Shown: in pieces, positions 2,746 to 8,545 of the stretch
Layout: each line of letters starts with the position of its first letter
Numbering within the stretch: position 1 is the stretch's first letter
DNA from: a virus
Lineage: Duplodnaviria > Heunggongvirae > Uroviricota > Caudoviricetes
Strand: one strand, 5' to 3'
Length of the DNA stretch: 43,752 nucleotides
IMG/VR virus record: IMGVR_UViG_2695420521_000005
Location: 1-43,752 of that record
Made by a program: the position numbers and the translations under genes
Notes under the pieces: model-generated
The model's database searches: none
The model's input: the letters and a program-made list of their open reading frames with translations, nothing else
Told to the model about the DNA's origin: nothing

Positions 2746-3426
2746 TCATCGCCATTGCTCCCCAAATACAAAACCAATTTCAGCCAGTGCCTCGTCCATT
2801 TTTTCGATGAACTCCGGCACCATCTCGTCAAAACCCGCCATGTACTTTTCATCCCGCTCAACCACGACATAATGCAGTCCTTCACGCTTCATACGCGGGT
2901 CATAGTTGGCAAAGTACCAGGCATCTTTTCGCGTCACCCACATGCTGTACTGCACCTGGGCCATGTAAGCCGACTTTATGGCCTCGAAACCACCGAGCCG
3001 GAACTTCATGAAATCTCGGGAGGTAAACGGGCATTTCAGCTCAAGGCCATTGCCGTCACTGCATAAACCATCGGGAGAGCAGGCGGTGCGCATACTTTCG
3101 TCGCGATAGATGATCGGGGATTCAGTAACATTCACGCCGGAAGTGAATTCAAACAGGGTTCTGGCGTCGTTCTCGTACTGTTTTCCCCAGGCCAGCGCCT
3201 TAGCATTAACTTCCGGAGCCACACCGGTGCAAACCTCAGCCAGCAGGGTGTGGAAGTAGGACATTTTCATGTCAGGCCACTTCTTTCCTGAGCGGGGCTT
3301 TGCTATCACGTTGTGAACTTCTGAAGCGGTGATGACGCCGAGCCGTAATTTGTGCCATGCATCATCCCCCTGTTCGACAGCTCTCACGTCGATCCCGGTA
3401 CGCTGCAGGATAATGTCCGGTGTCAT
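2746..3426 (-). CDS. exo: lambda-type 5'-3' exonuclease (Red alpha)
   Basis: 226-aa product [40 protein letters not shown]... is near-identical to lambda Exo as I recall it; same length; followed by bet and gam. Confidence 0.95.
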
Positions 3427-4208
3427 GCTGCCACCTTCTGCTCAGTGGCTTTCTGTTTCAGGAATCCAAGAGCTTTCACTGCTTCGGCTTGTGTCAGTTC
3501 TGACGATGCGCGAATGTCGCGGCGAAATATCTGGGAACAGAGCGGCAATAAGTCGTCATCCCATGTTTTATCCAGGGCGATCAGCAGAGTGTTAATCTCC
3601 TGCATGGTTTCATCGTTAACCGGAGTGATGTCGCGTTCCGGCTGACGTTCTGCAGTGTATGCAGTATTTTCGACAATGCGCTCGGCTTCATCCTTGTCAT
3701 AGATACCAGCAAATCCGAAGGCCAGACGGGCACACTGAATCATGGCTTTATGCCGTAACATCCGTTTGGGATGCGACTGCCACGGTCCGGTGATTTCTCT
3801 GCCTTCGCGGGTTTTGAATGGTTCGCGGCGGCATTCATCCATCCACTCGGTAACGCAGATCGGATGATTACGGTCCTTGCGGTAAATCCGGCATGTACAG
3901 GATTCATTGTCCTGCTCAAAGTCCATGCCATCAAACTGCTGGTTTTCATTGATGATGCGGGACCAGCCATCAACGCCCACCACCGGAACGATGCCGTTCT
4001 GCTTATCAGGGAAGGCGTAAATTTCTTTCGTCCACGGATTAAGGCCGTACTGGTTGGCGACGATCAACAATGCGATGAACTGCGCATCGCTGGCATCACC
4101 TTTAAATGCCGTCTGGCGAAGAGTGGTGATCAGTTCCTGTGGGTCGACAGAATCCATGCCGACACGTTCAGCCAGCTTCCCAGCCAGCGTTGCGAGTGCT
4201 GTACTCAT
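3423..4208 (-). CDS. bet: single-strand annealing protein Bet (Red beta)
   Basis: 261-aa product [66 protein letters not shown]... matches lambda Bet from memory; 4-nt overlap with exo. Confidence 0.95.
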
Positions 4209-4213
4209 CCGTT

Positions 4214-4510
4214 TTATACCTCTGAATCAATATCAACCTGATGGTGAGCAATGGTTTCAACCATGTACCGGATGTGTTCTGCCATGCGCTCCTGAAACTC
4301 AACATCGTCATCAAATGCACGGGTAATGGCTTTTTTGCTGGCCCCGTGGCGTTGCAAATGATCGATGCAGAGTGATTCAAACAGGTGCTGTGGAAGACCT
4401 TTTTCCATGTCGTCTGCCAGTTCTGCCTCTTTCTCTTCACGGGCAATCTGCTGGTAGTGACGCGCCCAGCTCTGAGCCTCAAGACGATCCTGAATGTAAT
4501 AAGCGTTCAT
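4214..4510 (-). CDS. gam: RecBCD inhibitor Gam (short GamS-length form)
   Basis: 98-aa product [60 protein letters not shown]... matches lambda GamS; the frame is open further upstream but that part does not match the lambda long-form N-terminus as I recall it. Confidence 0.9.
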
Positions 4511-4585
4511 GGCTGAACTCCTGAAAATGGCTGTGAAAATATCGCCCGCGAAATGCCAGGCTGATTAGGAAAACAGGAAAGGGGA

Positions 4586-4996
4586 TTAGTGATTCAGGCC
4601 GTTGCCTCGTCCGTCGAGAAAAACTTCCACGAGCAAATCACGGGTATAAGTGCGCTCGATGCCGCGATGCAGATATAGCCGTCCGCGTAAATTAGCTGAT
4701 GCTGTCCAGGTACCATCTTTGTGTTTGACCAGCATTCCTGGCATGACCGCACCGCGATTAACGGTCTGCGTTCCGTAATGTTGATGAACCATAAAAACTC
4801 CTGCCCGTAAGCTGGGCTGCTGAACATATAAAGACTTCTGCGCGTATTCAGGCGGTGGATGGCCGCCGGTTGTCATAACTAAGCCGCCTCGTTGAAGCGA
4901 CTGAGGTATGAAATGTTGAGTTAATTTCAGCTGGTCACACCGACGTTCACGCGTCCGCTTCACCCCTCGCACTTCCCGGAGCCTGCTGAAATTCAA
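4586..4996 (-). CDS. hypothetical protein in the N-gene position
   Basis: ORF between gam and the putative pL/oL region. As drawn it starts at a TTG and would have an Arg-rich N-terminus (VRGVKRTRERRCDQLK) reminiscent of N-type arginine-rich motifs; the first ATG is internal (about 4876), giving 96 aa. No kil or cIII homologues are visible between gam and this ORF. Confidence 0.4.
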   Translation of the reverse strand: MNFSRLREVRGVKRTRERRCDQLKLTQHFIPQSLQRGGLVMTTGGHPPPEYAQKSLYVQQPSLRAGVFMVHQHYGTQTVNRGAVMPGMLVKHKDGTWTASANLRGRLYLHRGIERTYTRDLLVEVFLDGRGNGLNH

Positions 4997-5079
4997 GCTA
5001 CGGATCTAAGCGGTCATCGCAACGGTGAATCAGGTGGTTGCCGTATCGTTGTGTTGTTGCGATATGATGATAATAGCTA

Positions 5080-5190
5080 TTGCTATTGGTGATATCAATA
5101 CTTATTGCTATTGACTGATGTGTTTTGATATTAAATGTTTGATAGCAAAAAGAATTAATTTTGTGACTTGCATCGCATAGCGATAACTGA
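5080..5190 (-). promoter_or_regulatory. putative oL/pL operator-promoter region
   Basis: AT-rich intergenic region between the rexB-position gene and the N-position ORF. Holds two copies of TTGCTATTG (5090-5098, 5105-5113), a motif also found twice in the cI-cro intergenic region, plus a 5-3-5 palindrome ATCGCATAGCGAT near 5171-5183. Confidence 0.4.
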
Positions 5191-5271
5191 AGCAGGGGCA
5201 TGGTGGTTTTTTGAACGGTGTGTGATGAGGGGAGGCAAAAGAAAACCCGGCACGACGGCCGGGGAGGGGGG

Positions 5272-5778
5272 TCATTTTAATCTATCAAGGAGTGACTCTC
5301 TTTCCTTCTTCTCTGATTCTCTTCGGTTTAATAACGCTTTAAACTCTTGAAGCTCAACCATTATTTTATGAACGAATACACTGGTATAGAGAGAAATAAA
5401 GAGTAATCCACCTGAAATTTTTAAGACCCTGAAGAGTAGGGCTTGATCATTTGTGCTTGCTATTAACCCCAAGATTACAAACAAAGTTGAAAATACATAG
5501 AAAGCTAATAATAAAACCAATTTCAGTCTCTTGGATTTGACTATTGGCACTAATCGCCTAACCTCACTAGGGGTTAAAGACGAGTGGTCATTGGCCTCAT
5601 TTGCCTTAAAAATGGCTTGTATACAATATGATAATGGCAATTGCATGAGTCCAACCACAGCCCACGGAGCTGTTAGGACAACACCCGGTGTAATATAGCC
5701 CAATGCTGACTTGAACAAAAAGTAACCAGCAACATAGAAGACCAACATACCAATAAGGTGGATGATGTTCGATTTCAT
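5272..5778 (-). CDS. small integral membrane protein (about 4 TM helices) in the rexB position
   Basis: 168 aa with four hydrophobic segments (IIHLIGMLVFYVAGYFLF; VVLTAPWAVVGLMQLPLSYCIQAIF; LKLVLLLAFYVFSTLFVILGLIAS; GGLLFISLYTSVFV) and a charged C-terminal tail. Strong RBS (AGGAGG) 6 nt before the ATG; only 21 bp after the stop of the upstream 340-aa gene; visibly AT-rich. Confidence 0.75.
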   Translation of the reverse strand: MKSNIIHLIGMLVFYVAGYFLFKSALGYITPGVVLTAPWAVVGLMQLPLSYCIQAIFKANEANDHSSLTPSEVRRLVPIVKSKRLKLVLLLAFYVFSTLFVILGLIASTNDQALLFRVLKISGGLLFISLYTSVFVHKIMVELQEFKALLNRRESEKKERESLLDRLK

Positions 5779-5799
5779 TATCGCCCTCCTTTTGGTAGG

Positions 5800-6822
5800 T
5801 TATTTTGCAACCAATTCTCCGGCATCAAGTTTTGAGAACAGCCACTTATGCATTTTTAAGAATAAATCATTTTCATCAATAATGCCATTGTTATGTTCAA
5901 CGCTAATTTTTCCGGATAATTTTATCTCTTTTCCCGTTATTTCCCCACCGCCTTGAAGTTTGATGCTAATATCATCCTCATCTAGATGTCGTAGTGAGGT
6001 AGCAATACTGTCTATAACAGCTTGACCGCTATCATTTGTTTTTCTGAAGTATGTAATCTCGAGGCTTACTTGTAAATTGGCCTCATCTAATGAATCTTTA
6101 ATGTTTATATCATTTGCCCAGTTATCGCCAAAAAATGCTTTTAGTAGCGCACCTCCTTTCCCTATTGGGCGGTATTTTATTGTCTTCACCGAACCATTTG
6201 AAAAGGAGGGTGTTTGGTTCTCTGAATTTTTAACTTCTGAAGTAATGGGTAATCCACCAATTTTTATGCTCTTGGCTGGTGCTTTCTCCATTTTTTTCAT
6301 CGTTTCTTCGGATGGCTTATCTTGAAGCATTAACACAGATTCTTTTTCATCTGTGAATGTATTAATTAGCCAATTCAAATGCGCCTCAAGCTCCCTTGCT
6401 CGAAGCGATGTGGATTGAACGATCATGACATGGTTGTTTAGTACACCAAAATATAAAATTGAATCTACAAACTCTCTTTTTTTGTCACTACGTTTATCTC
6501 CATCAATAATTATATCATTAGACGTGATGGAGTTAATGTCATAAAATTTAACATTATCACTAAGCTCTAATAGAGACTGGCTTTTGTCTTTTTCAAATAA
6601 AACCAGTTGCCCAAAAAGTATAGTTTTGTATGTGTCGCTTTTATTTAAGAAACGATACCCCGAATTTTCATCTGAAGGTGTTATTTTTTCTTGTCTACTA
6701 AGTACTTTTTCTGCAACGCCGCCCTCACCTATAATACTAAGTAGTATGTTTTGTAATGATGATTTGCTGTGTGGGATTACTGCTTTTTTATAATGAACGA
6801 CTTTTTGTCTGTTATCTTTCAT
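5800..6822 (-). CDS. hypothetical cytoplasmic protein in the rexA position
   Basis: 340-aa ORF immediately downstream of cI on the same strand; Lys/Asp/Glu/Ser-rich, no catalytic motif recognised; visibly AT-rich; forms an operon with the downstream membrane protein. Confidence 0.75.
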   Translation of the reverse strand: MKDNRQKVVHYKKAVIPHSKSSLQNILLSIIGEGGVAEKVLSRQEKITPSDENSGYRFLNKSDTYKTILFGQLVLFEKDKSQSLLELSDNVKFYDINSITSNDIIIDGDKRSDKKREFVDSILYFGVLNNHVMIVQSTSLRARELEAHLNWLINTFTDEKESVLMLQDKPSEETMKKMEKAPAKSIKIGGLPITSEVKNSENQTPSFSNGSVKTIKYRPIGKGGALLKAFFGDNWANDINIKDSLDEANLQVSLEITYFRKTNDSGQAVIDSIATSLRHLDEDDISIKLQGGGEITGKEIKLSGKISVEHNNGIIDENDLFLKMHKWLFSKLDAGELVAK

Positions 6823-6879
6823 TGCTATAGTCCAACTAGTATTGAATAAATAAACACAGTAAAGACATAAAAATTTCTT

Positions 6880-6909
6880 ATAGCTACCGATAACGTAATC
6901 GGTAGCTAT
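6880..6909 (-). terminator. perfect 11-bp inverted repeat between cI and the downstream moron (possible intrinsic terminator or regulatory hairpin)
   Basis: ATAGCTACCGA-TAACGTAA-TCGGTAGCTAT; on the minus (transcribed) strand the stem is followed by AAGAAATTTTTATG, which is partly U-rich. Confidence 0.45.
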
Positions 6910-6944
6910 TACAAATCAACCAAAGGTAATTCTTTACATACTAC

Positions 6945-7637
6945 CTACCCATGCTTCCTGTAGGTCTGCGGCATGCTCCCAATAACTTTCCCGAAGATAA
7001 ACACCCGGTTCATCTCGTCTTTCTCGATAGGATCCCACGGTGAGTAGCTCTTGTTATCAGAGATAACCAGCAGTTTATCCTTCATCATTTGCAGGCGCTT
7101 TACATGGGCGGTGTCGTCGTACAGAAATGCATAGATACCATCACCGTCGAAAGATTTAACCGTGATATCAACGAACAGCAGATCACCTGGTTCGATCGTT
7201 CCTGACATGCTGTCACCACGCACGTTAATGATGCGGATATTTTCTGCCTTCCTGCCATCGAACATGTGACGAGCATCGTCAAACGAGTACTCAACCGAGC
7301 GTAGAACTTCTACAAACTCACGGTTGATGACTCCCGGCCCGGCACTGACTTCTATATCAAGAACGTCAATTTTGAAGTATTTGGAATGGCTGACAGCAGG
7401 CTTCCCTGATTGTTGACCGTCATTTCTCATCGGGCCTATGCCTGATGAGAGCCATTCTGTTCGAACACCCAATGCATTAGCTATTTCAACAATTTTTGTT
7501 GAGCCGCGCGCGTTGCCGCTTGTCAGTCTCCAGATTGTGGGTTGAGCTACGCCAGACGCCTTTGCAAGAGCGCCTTGAGACATTCCAGATTGTTCCATCG
7601 CTAGGTTTAAGCGATCAGCAAGAGTTTCTTTTTTCAT
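6945..7637 (-). CDS. cI: CI-type prophage repressor (HTH plus S24 LexA-like autopeptidase domain)
   Basis: N-terminal HTH (MSQGALAKASGVAQPTIWRL) and C-terminal S24 signature (GDSM serine, VKRL lysine); divergent from cro. The first ATG is at 7637 with no SD, consistent with a leaderless pRM-type transcript; the ORF track extends to a TTG at 7673. Sequence is not lambda CI, so the immunity specificity is different. Confidence 0.85.
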   Translation of the reverse strand: MKKETLADRLNLAMEQSGMSQGALAKASGVAQPTIWRLTSGNARGSTKIVEIANALGVRTEWLSSGIGPMRNDGQQSGKPAVSHSKYFKIDVLDIEVSAGPGVINREFVEVLRSVEYSFDDARHMFDGRKAENIRIINVRGDSMSGTIEPGDLLFVDITVKSFDGDGIYAFLYDDTAHVKRLQMMKDKLLVISDNKSYSPWDPIEKDEMNRVFIFGKVIGSMPQTYRKHG

Positions 7638-7747
7638 AAGTTTTAATTTATACGCTTGCGTATTGATGGTCAAAACACGTTTTGCTATTGCTTGGATTAA
7701 TACGCATTGCTATTATTCATTCATTGCAATACCAATAGGAATTGATA
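7638..7747. promoter_or_regulatory. putative oR / pR-pRM divergent operator-promoter region
   Basis: 110-bp AT-rich cI-cro intergenic region with the palindrome ATACGCttGCGTAT (7650-7663), TTGCTATTG at 7682-7690, TTGCTATT at 7707-7714 and the palindromic ATTGCAAT at about 7723-7730. Confidence 0.5.
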
Positions 7748-7975
7748 ATGACAAATCAAACCATTCAACTCGCAATCAGTATTACAGGTAGTCAAAAGCG
7801 ACTGGCAGATCTATGCGGTGTAGCCCAGCCCACTGTTTGGCGTTGGCTACACGGTGGCGGAATTGATGCCCGCTATGTAATGAAAATTGTCTCAGCCACT
7901 GGTGGAAAGATTAAACCAGCAGATATTCGTCCCGACCTCGCACCATTGTTTAACGCGAGTAATTCTGCCGCCTAA
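7748..7975 (+). CDS. cro: Cro-like HTH repressor
   Basis: About 75 aa from the ATG at 7748 (SD AGGA 7 nt upstream); HTH QKRLADLCGVAQPTVWRW; divergent from cI. Confidence 0.8.
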   Translation: MTNQTIQLAISITGSQKRLADLCGVAQPTVWRWLHGGGIDARYVMKIVSATGGKIKPADIRPDLAPLFNASNSAA

Positions 7976-7983
7976 TCTGCGGC
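7967..7983 (+). terminator. small hairpin at the cro stop (possible tR1-like element)
   Basis: GCCGC-ctaatct-GCGGC stem-loop spanning the cro stop codon; no strong U-tract, so if functional it is probably Rho-dependent or N-modulated. Confidence 0.2.
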
Positions 7984-7999
7984 GTTAACTGATAAGGCA

Positions 8000-8545
8000 A
8001 TGACTATGCAACCACTTACATACCAACAGACTAGCGGATTTAGCCCGACTGCGGTGATAAATCGTTCTCAAACAAAACAAGCTCCAGGCCACGAAAAAAT
8101 CCGTGATGCCGTCCGCGCCTGGTCGGCTGCAGATAATCAGGATGTTGTTGCCGCACTCATTGTGAATGAGTATCGGGAGCAGGGCGGCGGCACCATCGAT
8201 TTCCCTGATGATGTCAGCCGTGCACGCCAGAAGCTGTTCCGCTTCCTCGATAACAAATTCGATTCTGAAAAATACCGAAATAACGTGCGTGAACTGACCC
8301 CGGCAATTCTGGCGGTACTACCGCTGGAATATCGCGGCCACCTGGTTGAGCAGGATAGCTTCATGGCTCGGCTGGCTGAAATGGAAAAGGAACTCAGTGA
8401 GGCAAAACAGGCTGTCATTCTCAACGCACCACGCCACCAGAAACTGAAGGAGATGAGTGAAGGCATTGTGTCGATGTTTCGTGTGGACCCGGATCTGGCT
8501 GGTCCACTGATGGCGATGGTCACCACCATGCTGGGGGCAATATGA
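8000..8545 (+). CDS. YdaT-family (CII-like domain) regulatory protein
   Basis: 181 aa in the cII position; the segment NEYREQGGG...TPAILAVLPLEYRGHL resembles E. coli Rac YdaT (EEYLRQGGG...IPAILAILPRELRHRL) as I recall it. Confidence 0.65.
   Translation: MTMQPLTYQQTSGFSPTAVINRSQTKQAPGHEKIRDAVRAWSAADNQDVVAALIVNEYREQGGGTIDFPDDVSRARQKLFRFLDNKFDSEKYRNNVRELTPAILAVLPLEYRGHLVEQDSFMARLAEMEKELSEAKQAVILNAPRHQKLKEMSEGIVSMFRVDPDLAGPLMAMVTTMLGAI

Follow-up and report, generated by a model that had tools for sequence, protein, structure and literature searches.

RexAB of phage lambda was the first abortive-infection (Abi) system to be discovered, and the way in which its soluble sensor RexA senses infection and gates the membrane protein RexB has been a question for 70 years. 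According to a paper of January 2026, five Rex-like systems have been described, and such systems are sensitive to the stoichiometry of sensor and effector (PMC12894663). In the Rex-like pair gp30/gp31 of mycobacteriophage Sbash, the substitutions R70A and D73A in the central loop of the membrane protein gp31 abolish defence (PMC6426596). Here we describe a pair of genes from IMG/VR record IMGVR_UViG_2695420521_000005, a lambdoid prophage of E. coli, of which the whole stretch of 43,752 nucleotides (positions 1 to 43,752) was analysed and is called the window below. Across the region of interest, the window is 99.8% identical to Escherichia phage Perceval of E. coli LF82. The initial annotation had placed a 340-aa and a 168-aa open reading frame (ORF) 3′ of cI on the same strand, separated by a 21-bp gap and with an AGGAGG ribosome-binding site, and both the ORFs and the sequence confirm this arrangement. 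The RexA-like gene (5800-6822, minus strand; RefSeq WP_000654525.1) encodes a 340-aa soluble protein, and the RexB-like gene (5272-5778, minus strand; WP_021544413.1) encodes a 168-aa predicted inner-membrane protein with four transmembrane (TM) helices. The 21-nt spacer lies between the stop codon TAA at 5800-5802 and the next ATG at 5776-5778, and the AGGAGG site of the membrane gene, read from the sequence at 5785-5790 on the minus strand, is 6 nt ahead of this ATG. The alleles of LF82/Perceval are PERCE_43 (RexA-like, WP_000654526.1) and PERCE_42 (RexB-like, WP_000841195.1). We suggest, with a probability of roughly 0.65, that these two genes form a module of the RexAB type in the immunity region, that they belong to a large family which resembles lambda RexAB in fold but shows no relationship to it in sequence, and that they would act in exclusion by analogy with RexAB.

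No hydrophobic segment is present in the 340-aa protein, in which the highest 19-residue Kyte-Doolittle window scores 1.1. The protein has no match in Pfam, PADLOC v2, NCBIfam or the PDB sequences, and PHROGs assigns both proteins of the pair to families of unknown function. The family-library searches detected no enzymatic or toxin domain in it, which is in agreement with the initial annotation, where no enzymatic motif had been seen. An AlphaFold2 model of the protein, built with 36 homologues, had a predicted local distance difference test (pLDDT) value of 71 and a predicted TM-score (pTM) of 0.68, and was good at residues 1-190 and 290-340. The model has the two-domain RexA/RdgC-like fold known from RexA (8TWQ). 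After RexA, its structural neighbours were CHL4 (7.2), CENP-N, RdgC (6.1), IML3 (5.9), the C. glutamicum epimerase 3OH8 (4.0) and Cas2 (3.7). In the paper on the crystal structure of RexA, the structural neighbours of RexA itself are CHL4, IML3, RdgC, 3OH8 and Cas2 (PMC11077077). RdgC (Pfam PF04381) showed no sequence match to the 340-aa protein, and a Foldseek search of the model against the viral library returned only five uncharacterised phage proteins and no RexA. These structural data strongly support the assignment of the protein to the RexA/RdgC fold, and among solved structures RexA is its closest relative.

The pair has already been reported in another context. DefensePredictor (Science 2026, PMC13092281, Table S6) lists WP_000841195.1 and WP_000654526.1 as a candidate system of 1,551 bp named "TMRA", with a log-odds score of 9.2, and gives for WP_000654526.1 a remote HHblits match to a RexA homologue (probability 95.8, 22% coverage). 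These accessions are those of the LF82 pair, whereas the window proteins are WP_021544413.1 and WP_000654525.1; the window sensor is 99.7% identical to the LF82 protein. DS-13 (TMO1) was also checked as the identity of the pair and is not the same.

The membrane protein has four hydrophobic cores at residues 8-22, 33-47, 88-102 and 114-128, and its lysine and arginine residues cluster at the N-terminus, in the central loop and in the C-terminal tail, which is the same positive-inside pattern as in lambda RexB. An AlphaFold model with a pLDDT of 85 contains helices at 2-26, 37-62, 70-107 and 112-167. Based on hydropathy and the positive-inside rule, together with this model, the protein is predicted to contain four TM helices with both termini and the central loop in the cytoplasm, as is the case in RexB-like effectors; the four helices noted in the initial annotation are confirmed. 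The central loop (about 51-85, predicted to be cytoplasmic) is conserved and is accompanied by a charged C-terminal helix (about 132-168). Among 60 unique partners with 19-100% identity to the window protein, E72 and R75 are invariant, F146 and R153 are conserved in 98%, K83 in 95% and R74 in 93%, and all six map to the predicted cytoplasmic face. A Foldseek search of the membrane model against the viral library found nothing at E ≤ 1e-3; the second-ranked match, which was the highest with a name, is a 165-aa Sbash protein (probability 0.99, E 0.09) and is probably the RexB-like gp31.

The position of the conserved residues also bears on the idea that the membrane protein performs a classical envelope superinfection exclusion, blocking the entry of DNA in the manner of SieB or Sie, and that the soluble protein has an accessory role. 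A small inner-membrane protein that is highly expressed in the lysogen would suit such a role. However, the conserved residues are on the predicted cytoplasmic face and not on the periplasmic one, and the obligatory partner with a RexA fold would be unexplained, so that we consider this explanation highly improbable.

The sensor belongs to a large family, with 784 clusters at 50% identity (E ≤ 1e-3). Its named members are found in Gammaproteobacteria, with outliers in Rhodocyclaceae and Chromatiales. A hidden Markov model of the partner detected a homologous 4-TM protein 3′ of the sensor gene in 87 of 90 loci, and the other three have no downstream sequence, so the partner is present in all 87 loci that can be assessed. 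The gap between the two genes ranges from −26 to +52 nt in all loci except one, where it is 128 nt. The order of sensor gene and then membrane gene on the same strand, which is characteristic of RexAB-type systems, is thereby conserved. The chances are about even that the pair represents by far the largest and most widespread branch of a RexAB superfamily, with about 800 clusters at 50% identity in Gamma- and Betaproteobacteria.

A cI-like gene with helix-turn-helix (HTH)/S24 domains is present upstream on the same strand within 400 nt in 18 of 65 unique sensor variants and within 2 kb in 10 more. The 28 repressor-adjacent variants include those of Pseudomonas, Cobetia, Methylobacter and Acinetobacter, and their repressors are very diverse. 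The location in an immunity region, as found in the window, is not universal, because 37 of the 65 variants lie elsewhere. These other sites are positions of accessory genes (morons). For example, Klebsiella prophages and Shigella phage SfIV have the pair between Q and the lysis genes, Stx2a phages have it between Q and stx2A, and P4-like satellites of Aeromonas have it after the primase gene.

Several individual loci deserve description. Stx2a_1447 (AP012536.1) carries a pair of 343 and 179 aa with 34% identity (retrieved locus 2992-4555), which lies between Q and a block of DNA methylase, tRNA and stx2A genes in O157:H7 Stx2a phages, that is, in the accessory-gene region of the late operon adjoining the toxin genes. 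In Aeromonas veronii LKJW01000064.1 (locus 6001-7690), the pair is found at the end of a P4-like satellite that contains Ogr/Delta, GPO_N, a P2-type capsid gene and a primase and adjoins the chromosomal rpoD/dnaG, which indicates that the pair is also carried by phage satellites. In Acinetobacter phage phi1_092021 (PQ859669.1, locus 2983-3984), a 32%-identical homologue downstream of the repressor was labelled "DefenseFinder protein" by the depositor; it has no match in PADLOC v2. A hicAB toxin-antitoxin system adjoins the pair in a Klebsiella aerogenes prophage (locus 5047-5753) and also adjoins the validated RexABpp in the P. putida prophage P1 (PP_3899-3900), and an association of hicAB with Rex-like pairs may be recurrent.

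Disrupted copies were also found. In SfIV (locus 3501-4324), an insertion sequence (IS) transposase gene directly follows a membrane ORF shortened to 108 aa, where homologues have about 170 aa. IS3 is inserted inside the pair in E. coli T309.Ta3 and IS1 in an alternative allele of strain CH4794 (the E. coli records with IS-hit pairs are NZ_CP128255.1 and NZ_CM166349.1), and shortened sensor forms of 208 aa occur on about 39 contigs. Such repeated inactivation may point to a fitness cost of the pair.

The comparison of the window with PhiR68_2 (PV340576.1) shows that the pair moves as a cassette. The two are 94.8% identical at 4900-5263 and 98.2% identical at 6949-7800, which includes cI, and there is no alignment between these segments. 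The slot in PhiR68_2 (retrieved locus 4565-6020, equal to window 5264-6948) contains a pair of 341 and 149 aa, the latter with four TM helices, and the PhiR68_2 sensor is a distant homologue of that in the window (hhalign probability 98.6%, E 1.4e-15, 19% identity). The exchangeable cassette, composed of a hairpin, the RexA-like gene and the RexB-like gene, therefore extends over 5264-6948 (minus strand), and the suggestion of a replacement module beside cI in the initial annotation proved correct, since PhiR68_2 replaces exactly this segment between near-identical flanks. The pair had also been described as AT-rich, and the GC content is indeed 0.33-0.40 over 5000-7000 versus about 0.50-0.54 in the flanks. 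Of 5,426 complete E. coli genomes, 42 carry the window allele and 42 the PhiR68_2 allele. Conflict genes are typically exchanged in this way, one allele taking the place of another at fixed boundaries while the repressor stays the same.

These genomic data have to be compared with the possibility that the pair works chiefly for the prophage itself, in the lysis-lysogeny switch or the control of induction, and not in defence against other phages. According to two studies, RexA shifts the balance of the lambda switch in favour of the lytic cycle (10.1101/2021.04.19.439022; PMC11077077), a function proposed for lambda RexA acting independently of RexB, and the authors of the BASEL study suggest that RexAB may not have evolved as immunity (PMC8594841). 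Moreover, in the window the pair belongs to the immunity region, TMRA gave no defence, and PERCE_43 is regulated by conditions (both described below). However, more than half of the unique variants are not beside a repressor, where a switch accessory would be left without its partner; the exchange of alleles behind a cI of 98% identity and the high defence score given by machine learning are both hallmarks of conflict genes; and the strict coupling to a membrane partner would not be explained. A role mainly in the switch is therefore rather unlikely.

Published RNA-seq data from LF82 show that the pair is expressed from the repressed prophage, as are RexAB-type systems. In LB, PERCE_42 reached about 578, PERCE_43 27 and cI 78 fragments per kilobase per million (fpkm), with lytic neighbours at a background of about 5 (PMC9928086, S1 Table). 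The transcript of the membrane gene was 7- to 21-fold above that of the sensor in LB, whereas in another condition the sensor was about 5-fold above cI (PMC9928086). PERCE_43 was up in B6 and in macrophage-internalised LF82 (log2FC 1.8), and PERCE_42 was catalogued as a highly expressed moron, 81-fold over the prophage background (PMC9928086). These levels indicate that the pair is expressed in lysogens with the membrane gene in large excess and that neither gene depends simply on read-through from cI. They imply that a transcript starts or is processed shortly before the membrane gene (5779-5900, minus strand) and that a promoter or antitermination operates under certain conditions in the interval from cI to the sensor gene (6823-6944, minus strand), although a consensus scan for sigma-70 promoters returned no convincing candidate for the membrane gene alone or in the interval after cI. 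In lambda, additional transcription of rexB starts from the P_LIT promoter. The excess of effector over sensor transcript observed here resembles this extra expression of rexB.

The expression data are relevant to two further explanations. The pair could be a lysogenic-conversion moron with a role in host physiology, such as membrane stress or intracellular survival, and the RexA-like fold would then belong to a generic DNA-binding regulator. The cataloguing of PERCE_42 as a highly expressed moron and the increase of PERCE_43 in macrophage-internalised LF82 are consistent with this, and Perceval bears other morons of benefit to the host, namely sitABCD, EmrE and Bor. However, the family spans free-living marine, soil and methanotrophic Pseudomonadota and their phages, which makes a niche-specific role unlikely, and the architecture and genomic contexts match those of known exclusion systems. 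We regard such a function as quite improbable.

The large excess of the membrane transcript would also suit a sequestering antidote, as expected if the logic of the system were reversed and the cytosolic RexA-like protein were the toxic or antiviral effector, held by the membrane protein until infection. Such logic has been documented for gp30/gp31 of mycobacteriophage Butters (PMC12894663), and the repeated IS hits in or beside the membrane gene show that its loss alone is tolerated in some hosts. However, the effector is the membrane protein in lambda, Sbash, CarolAnn and RexABpp (PMC12894663). In SfIV, the membrane gene is shortened by an IS while the sensor gene is intact, a state that a toxic free sensor would make lethal or costly, and no enzymatic or toxin domain was detected in the 340-aa protein. 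The reversed arrangement is unlikely in our view.

We therefore retain the RexAB-type module as the best explanation and propose a mechanism modelled on those of lambda RexAB, Sbash gp30/31 and P. putida RexABpp. The soluble protein would be a dimeric sensor that binds DNA non-specifically and, on infection by certain phages, would recognise a phage protein or a protein-DNA intermediate of replication or recombination. It would then engage the cytoplasmic face of the membrane protein at E72/R74/R75/K83 of the central loop and at F146/R153 of the C-terminal helix. The membrane protein might oligomerise or open as a channel or pore, and the resulting collapse of membrane potential and ATP and the arrest of growth would abort the infection. 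In uninfected lysogens, the excess of membrane protein over sensor may keep the system inactive. An additional role like that of RexA, in biasing the lysis-lysogeny switch of the prophage itself, is also possible.

Several observations weigh against this explanation. Neither the Pfam RexA family (PF15969) nor PADLOC PDLC02339 matched at E ≤ 1 (E ≤ 10 for the 340-aa protein against Pfam), and alignments of 36 and 64 members gave the same result, whereas in the PADLOC positive controls lambda RexA matched at 9e-110 and lambda RexB at 8.6e-61. The DUF4747 motif of lambda RexA and Sbash gp30 was not found by Pfam in the 340-aa protein or its relatives. The hhalign comparisons with a 23-sequence RexA alignment were non-significant, with E values of 0.72, 0.068 and 0.12 for 36, 64 and 256 family sequences. 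The alignment of the 256 sequences, although not significant at E 0.12, is co-linear with RexA over 231 columns and pairs the family motif REF-DS-LYFGV--NHVV--QS-SLR-R-LE-HL-WL with DESLGFPSFLF---VIGFART-YGPTT-DL--FL of RexA. The model of the 340-aa protein is of moderate quality, and residues 190-280 are mostly below a pLDDT of 60. The RexB families Pfam PF15968 and PADLOC PDLC02340 did not match the 168-aa protein, and hhalign of the partner alignment against RexB gave a non-significant E of 0.31. The likeness of the membrane protein to RexB is purely topological; four-helix bundles are common, and the Foldseek E values are non-significant. In addition, TMRA was reported as not defensive (defensive = FALSE) when carried on a low-copy plasmid in MG1655 and challenged with 24 phages, none of which it protected against (PMC13092281). 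It is the only published experimental test of the pair, which is thus already known from the literature both as a remote relative of RexA and as a system that failed one defence screen. The status of lambda RexAB as a dedicated defence is itself debated and its host range is very narrow: only two to three BASEL phages are affected, and wild-type T-even phages are insensitive (PMC8594841).

The narrow range of lambda RexAB and the sensitivity of Rex systems to stoichiometry are the reasons why we keep a Rex-type mechanism as the best explanation in spite of the negative test. The profile and structure comparison suggested in the initial annotation gave a fold match to RexA and non-significant profile comparisons. 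The view of the pair as a very divergent Rex analogue is accordingly upheld by the predicted RexA-type fold and the remote RexA match of DefensePredictor, but not by any significant sequence similarity to RexA or RexB. The Abi or exclusion function is a proposal by analogy, and the only published test, with TMRA and 24 phages, was negative.

The surroundings of the pair are those of a lambdoid immunity region. The cI repressor (6945-7673, minus strand) contains HTH_3 and Peptidase_S24 domains (Pfam PF00717 at 1.5e-18), and with the start annotated in Perceval and RefSeq it has 230 aa. An intrinsic terminator at 5246-5263 (minus strand) lies directly 3′ of the membrane gene and forms the left boundary of the cassette; it is composed of CCCGGC CGTCGT GCCGGG, with a 6-nt loop (CCCGGC-N6-GCCGGG), followed by TTTTCTTTT, and is the analogue of lambda tImm. 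An OL/pL-like region at about 5064-5160 (minus strand) has operator-like repeats in common with OR and a promoter-like site, TTGATA-17-TATTAT at 5098-5070, directed leftward into kil-gam-bet-exo. It is linked by a 49-nt direct repeat of 71% identity, and by further inverted repeats, with 7666-7714, and the OR-like operator region between cI and cro (7666-7752) contains the repeats matching the OL-like region. With cI and the pair located between the OL- and OR-like regions and closed by a terminator, this immunity region is laid out like lambda pL/OL - rexB - rexA - cI - OR.

Between cI and the RexA-like gene lies a hairpin at 6873-6916. The initial annotation had reported a perfect 11-bp inverted repeat at 6880-6909; the repeat is real, but its arms are in fact perfect over 12 bp with a 6-nt loop, and outside this core the hairpin extends imperfectly to 6873-6916, with a U-rich run after it on the transcript. 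As RNA it has a folding energy of −26 kcal/mol (z = −4.4 versus shuffles). The hairpin sits inside the segment replaced in PhiR68_2, and no homology to it was detected in cassettes of 72-73% identity. The partial transcriptional insulation suggested for it in the initial annotation is a possibility that would fit the 3-fold drop from cI to the sensor gene in the RNA-seq data from LB. An Rfam scan of 4500-8200 gave no match.

The gene at 8000-8545 (plus strand), in the position of cII, is labelled "CII regulatory protein" in Perceval and a YdaT-domain protein in RefSeq, which makes it the YdaT-type functional equivalent of CII and not a homologue of lambda CII. The kil-like ORF at 4586-4996 (minus strand; PHROG 294, phi80-type Kil) has a family match limited to its C-terminal 77 residues, and its true start is uncertain because the RefSeq product has 68 aa (207 nt) versus 139 aa in Perceval. 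In the interval from pL to kil, no gene for an N-like antiterminator can be recognised. Downstream of the P-like replication gene there is a second AT-rich island at about 10200-13300 (plus strand, GC 0.32-0.38). Perceval is annotated here with genes for a RenD-like protein, EmrE and a YbcK-like large serine recombinase, and then, on the opposite strand, for an alpha/beta hydrolase; the island looks like another accessory-gene insertion site.

The value of the pair lies in the size and diversity of its family, in the evidence for a cassette swap and in the conserved residues of the cytoplasmic face, which serve as testable hypotheses. The family shows that the architecture of a RexA-fold sensor with a 4-TM effector, expressed while the prophage is repressed, is far commoner than annotation suggests. 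Because Pfam, PADLOC v2, PHROGs and NCBIfam do not recognise it, profile-based defence inventories probably miss the copies in E. coli, Klebsiella, Shigella, Acinetobacter and Stx phages. The negative TMRA test is in turn a warning that single-plasmid assays with small phage panels may miss narrow, stoichiometry-dependent systems of the Rex type. The family is diverse enough for functional surfaces to be read from conservation, and if the pair is functional, the deep alignment would pinpoint the interface of sensor and effector at the loop residues E72/R74/R75/K83 and the helix residues F146/R153. If true, this would offer a comparative route to the question of how RexA gates RexB.

Compared with lambda RexA/RexB (PDB 8TWQ; PF15969/PF15968), the pair occupies the same slot 3′ of cI on the same strand, between OL and OR and closed by a terminator. 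It has the same order of a soluble and then a 4-TM gene and a partner with the same N-in/C-in topology, and both genes are expressed in the lysogen. The differences are the lack of significant sequence similarity, the longer sensors (340-398 aa versus 279 aa for RexA) and membrane proteins (160-187 aa versus 144 aa for RexB), a central loop of 28-40 versus 20 residues and the presence of a charged C-terminal helix of 29-37 residues, which lambda RexB does not have. The pair further differs in being separated from cI by a stable hairpin, and exclusion is attributed to it by analogy.

In the RexABpp system of P. putida prophage P1 (PP_5643/PP_5644; Sci Rep 2026, PMC12894663), RexApp was found by HHpred as a RexA homologue (98%), whereas the family described here is undetectable in profile comparisons. 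The termini of RexABpp deduced from primers (MHRTATFV...SRLMV and MLIGQLANP...LYYLGYKLQE), by which alone the two were compared, are unlike those of the window family; no collected protein bears them, and a 25-mer derived from the primers had no match in viral_contigs or genome_contigs. The actinophage systems Sbash gp30/gp31 and CarolAnn gp44/gp43 likewise combine sensors of 370-372 aa with 4-TM partners, and in Sbash gp31 the charged central-loop residues R70 and D73 are essential, comparable to E72, R74 and R75 here. However, both are from another phylum and have no sequence similarity to the pair, the Sbash genes are not beside a repressor, and DUF4747 is absent from the window family according to Pfam. 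Butters gp30/gp31 is also a two-gene pair of a soluble and a 4-TM protein and is classed as Rex-like, but in that system the soluble protein acts as the effector and is inhibited by the membrane protein. RdgC and CHL4/IML3/CENP-N, which belong to the same fold superfamily as RexA, are housekeeping DNA-binding proteins without membrane partners, and RexA is clearly the closer match to the 340-aa protein. The pair thus agrees with RexAB-type systems in structure, topology, gene order, location and expression but with none of the sequence families tested (Pfam RexA/RexB, DUF4747 and PADLOC), and it is a new and much larger family of the RexAB kind, outside the sequence families of lambda RexA and RexB.

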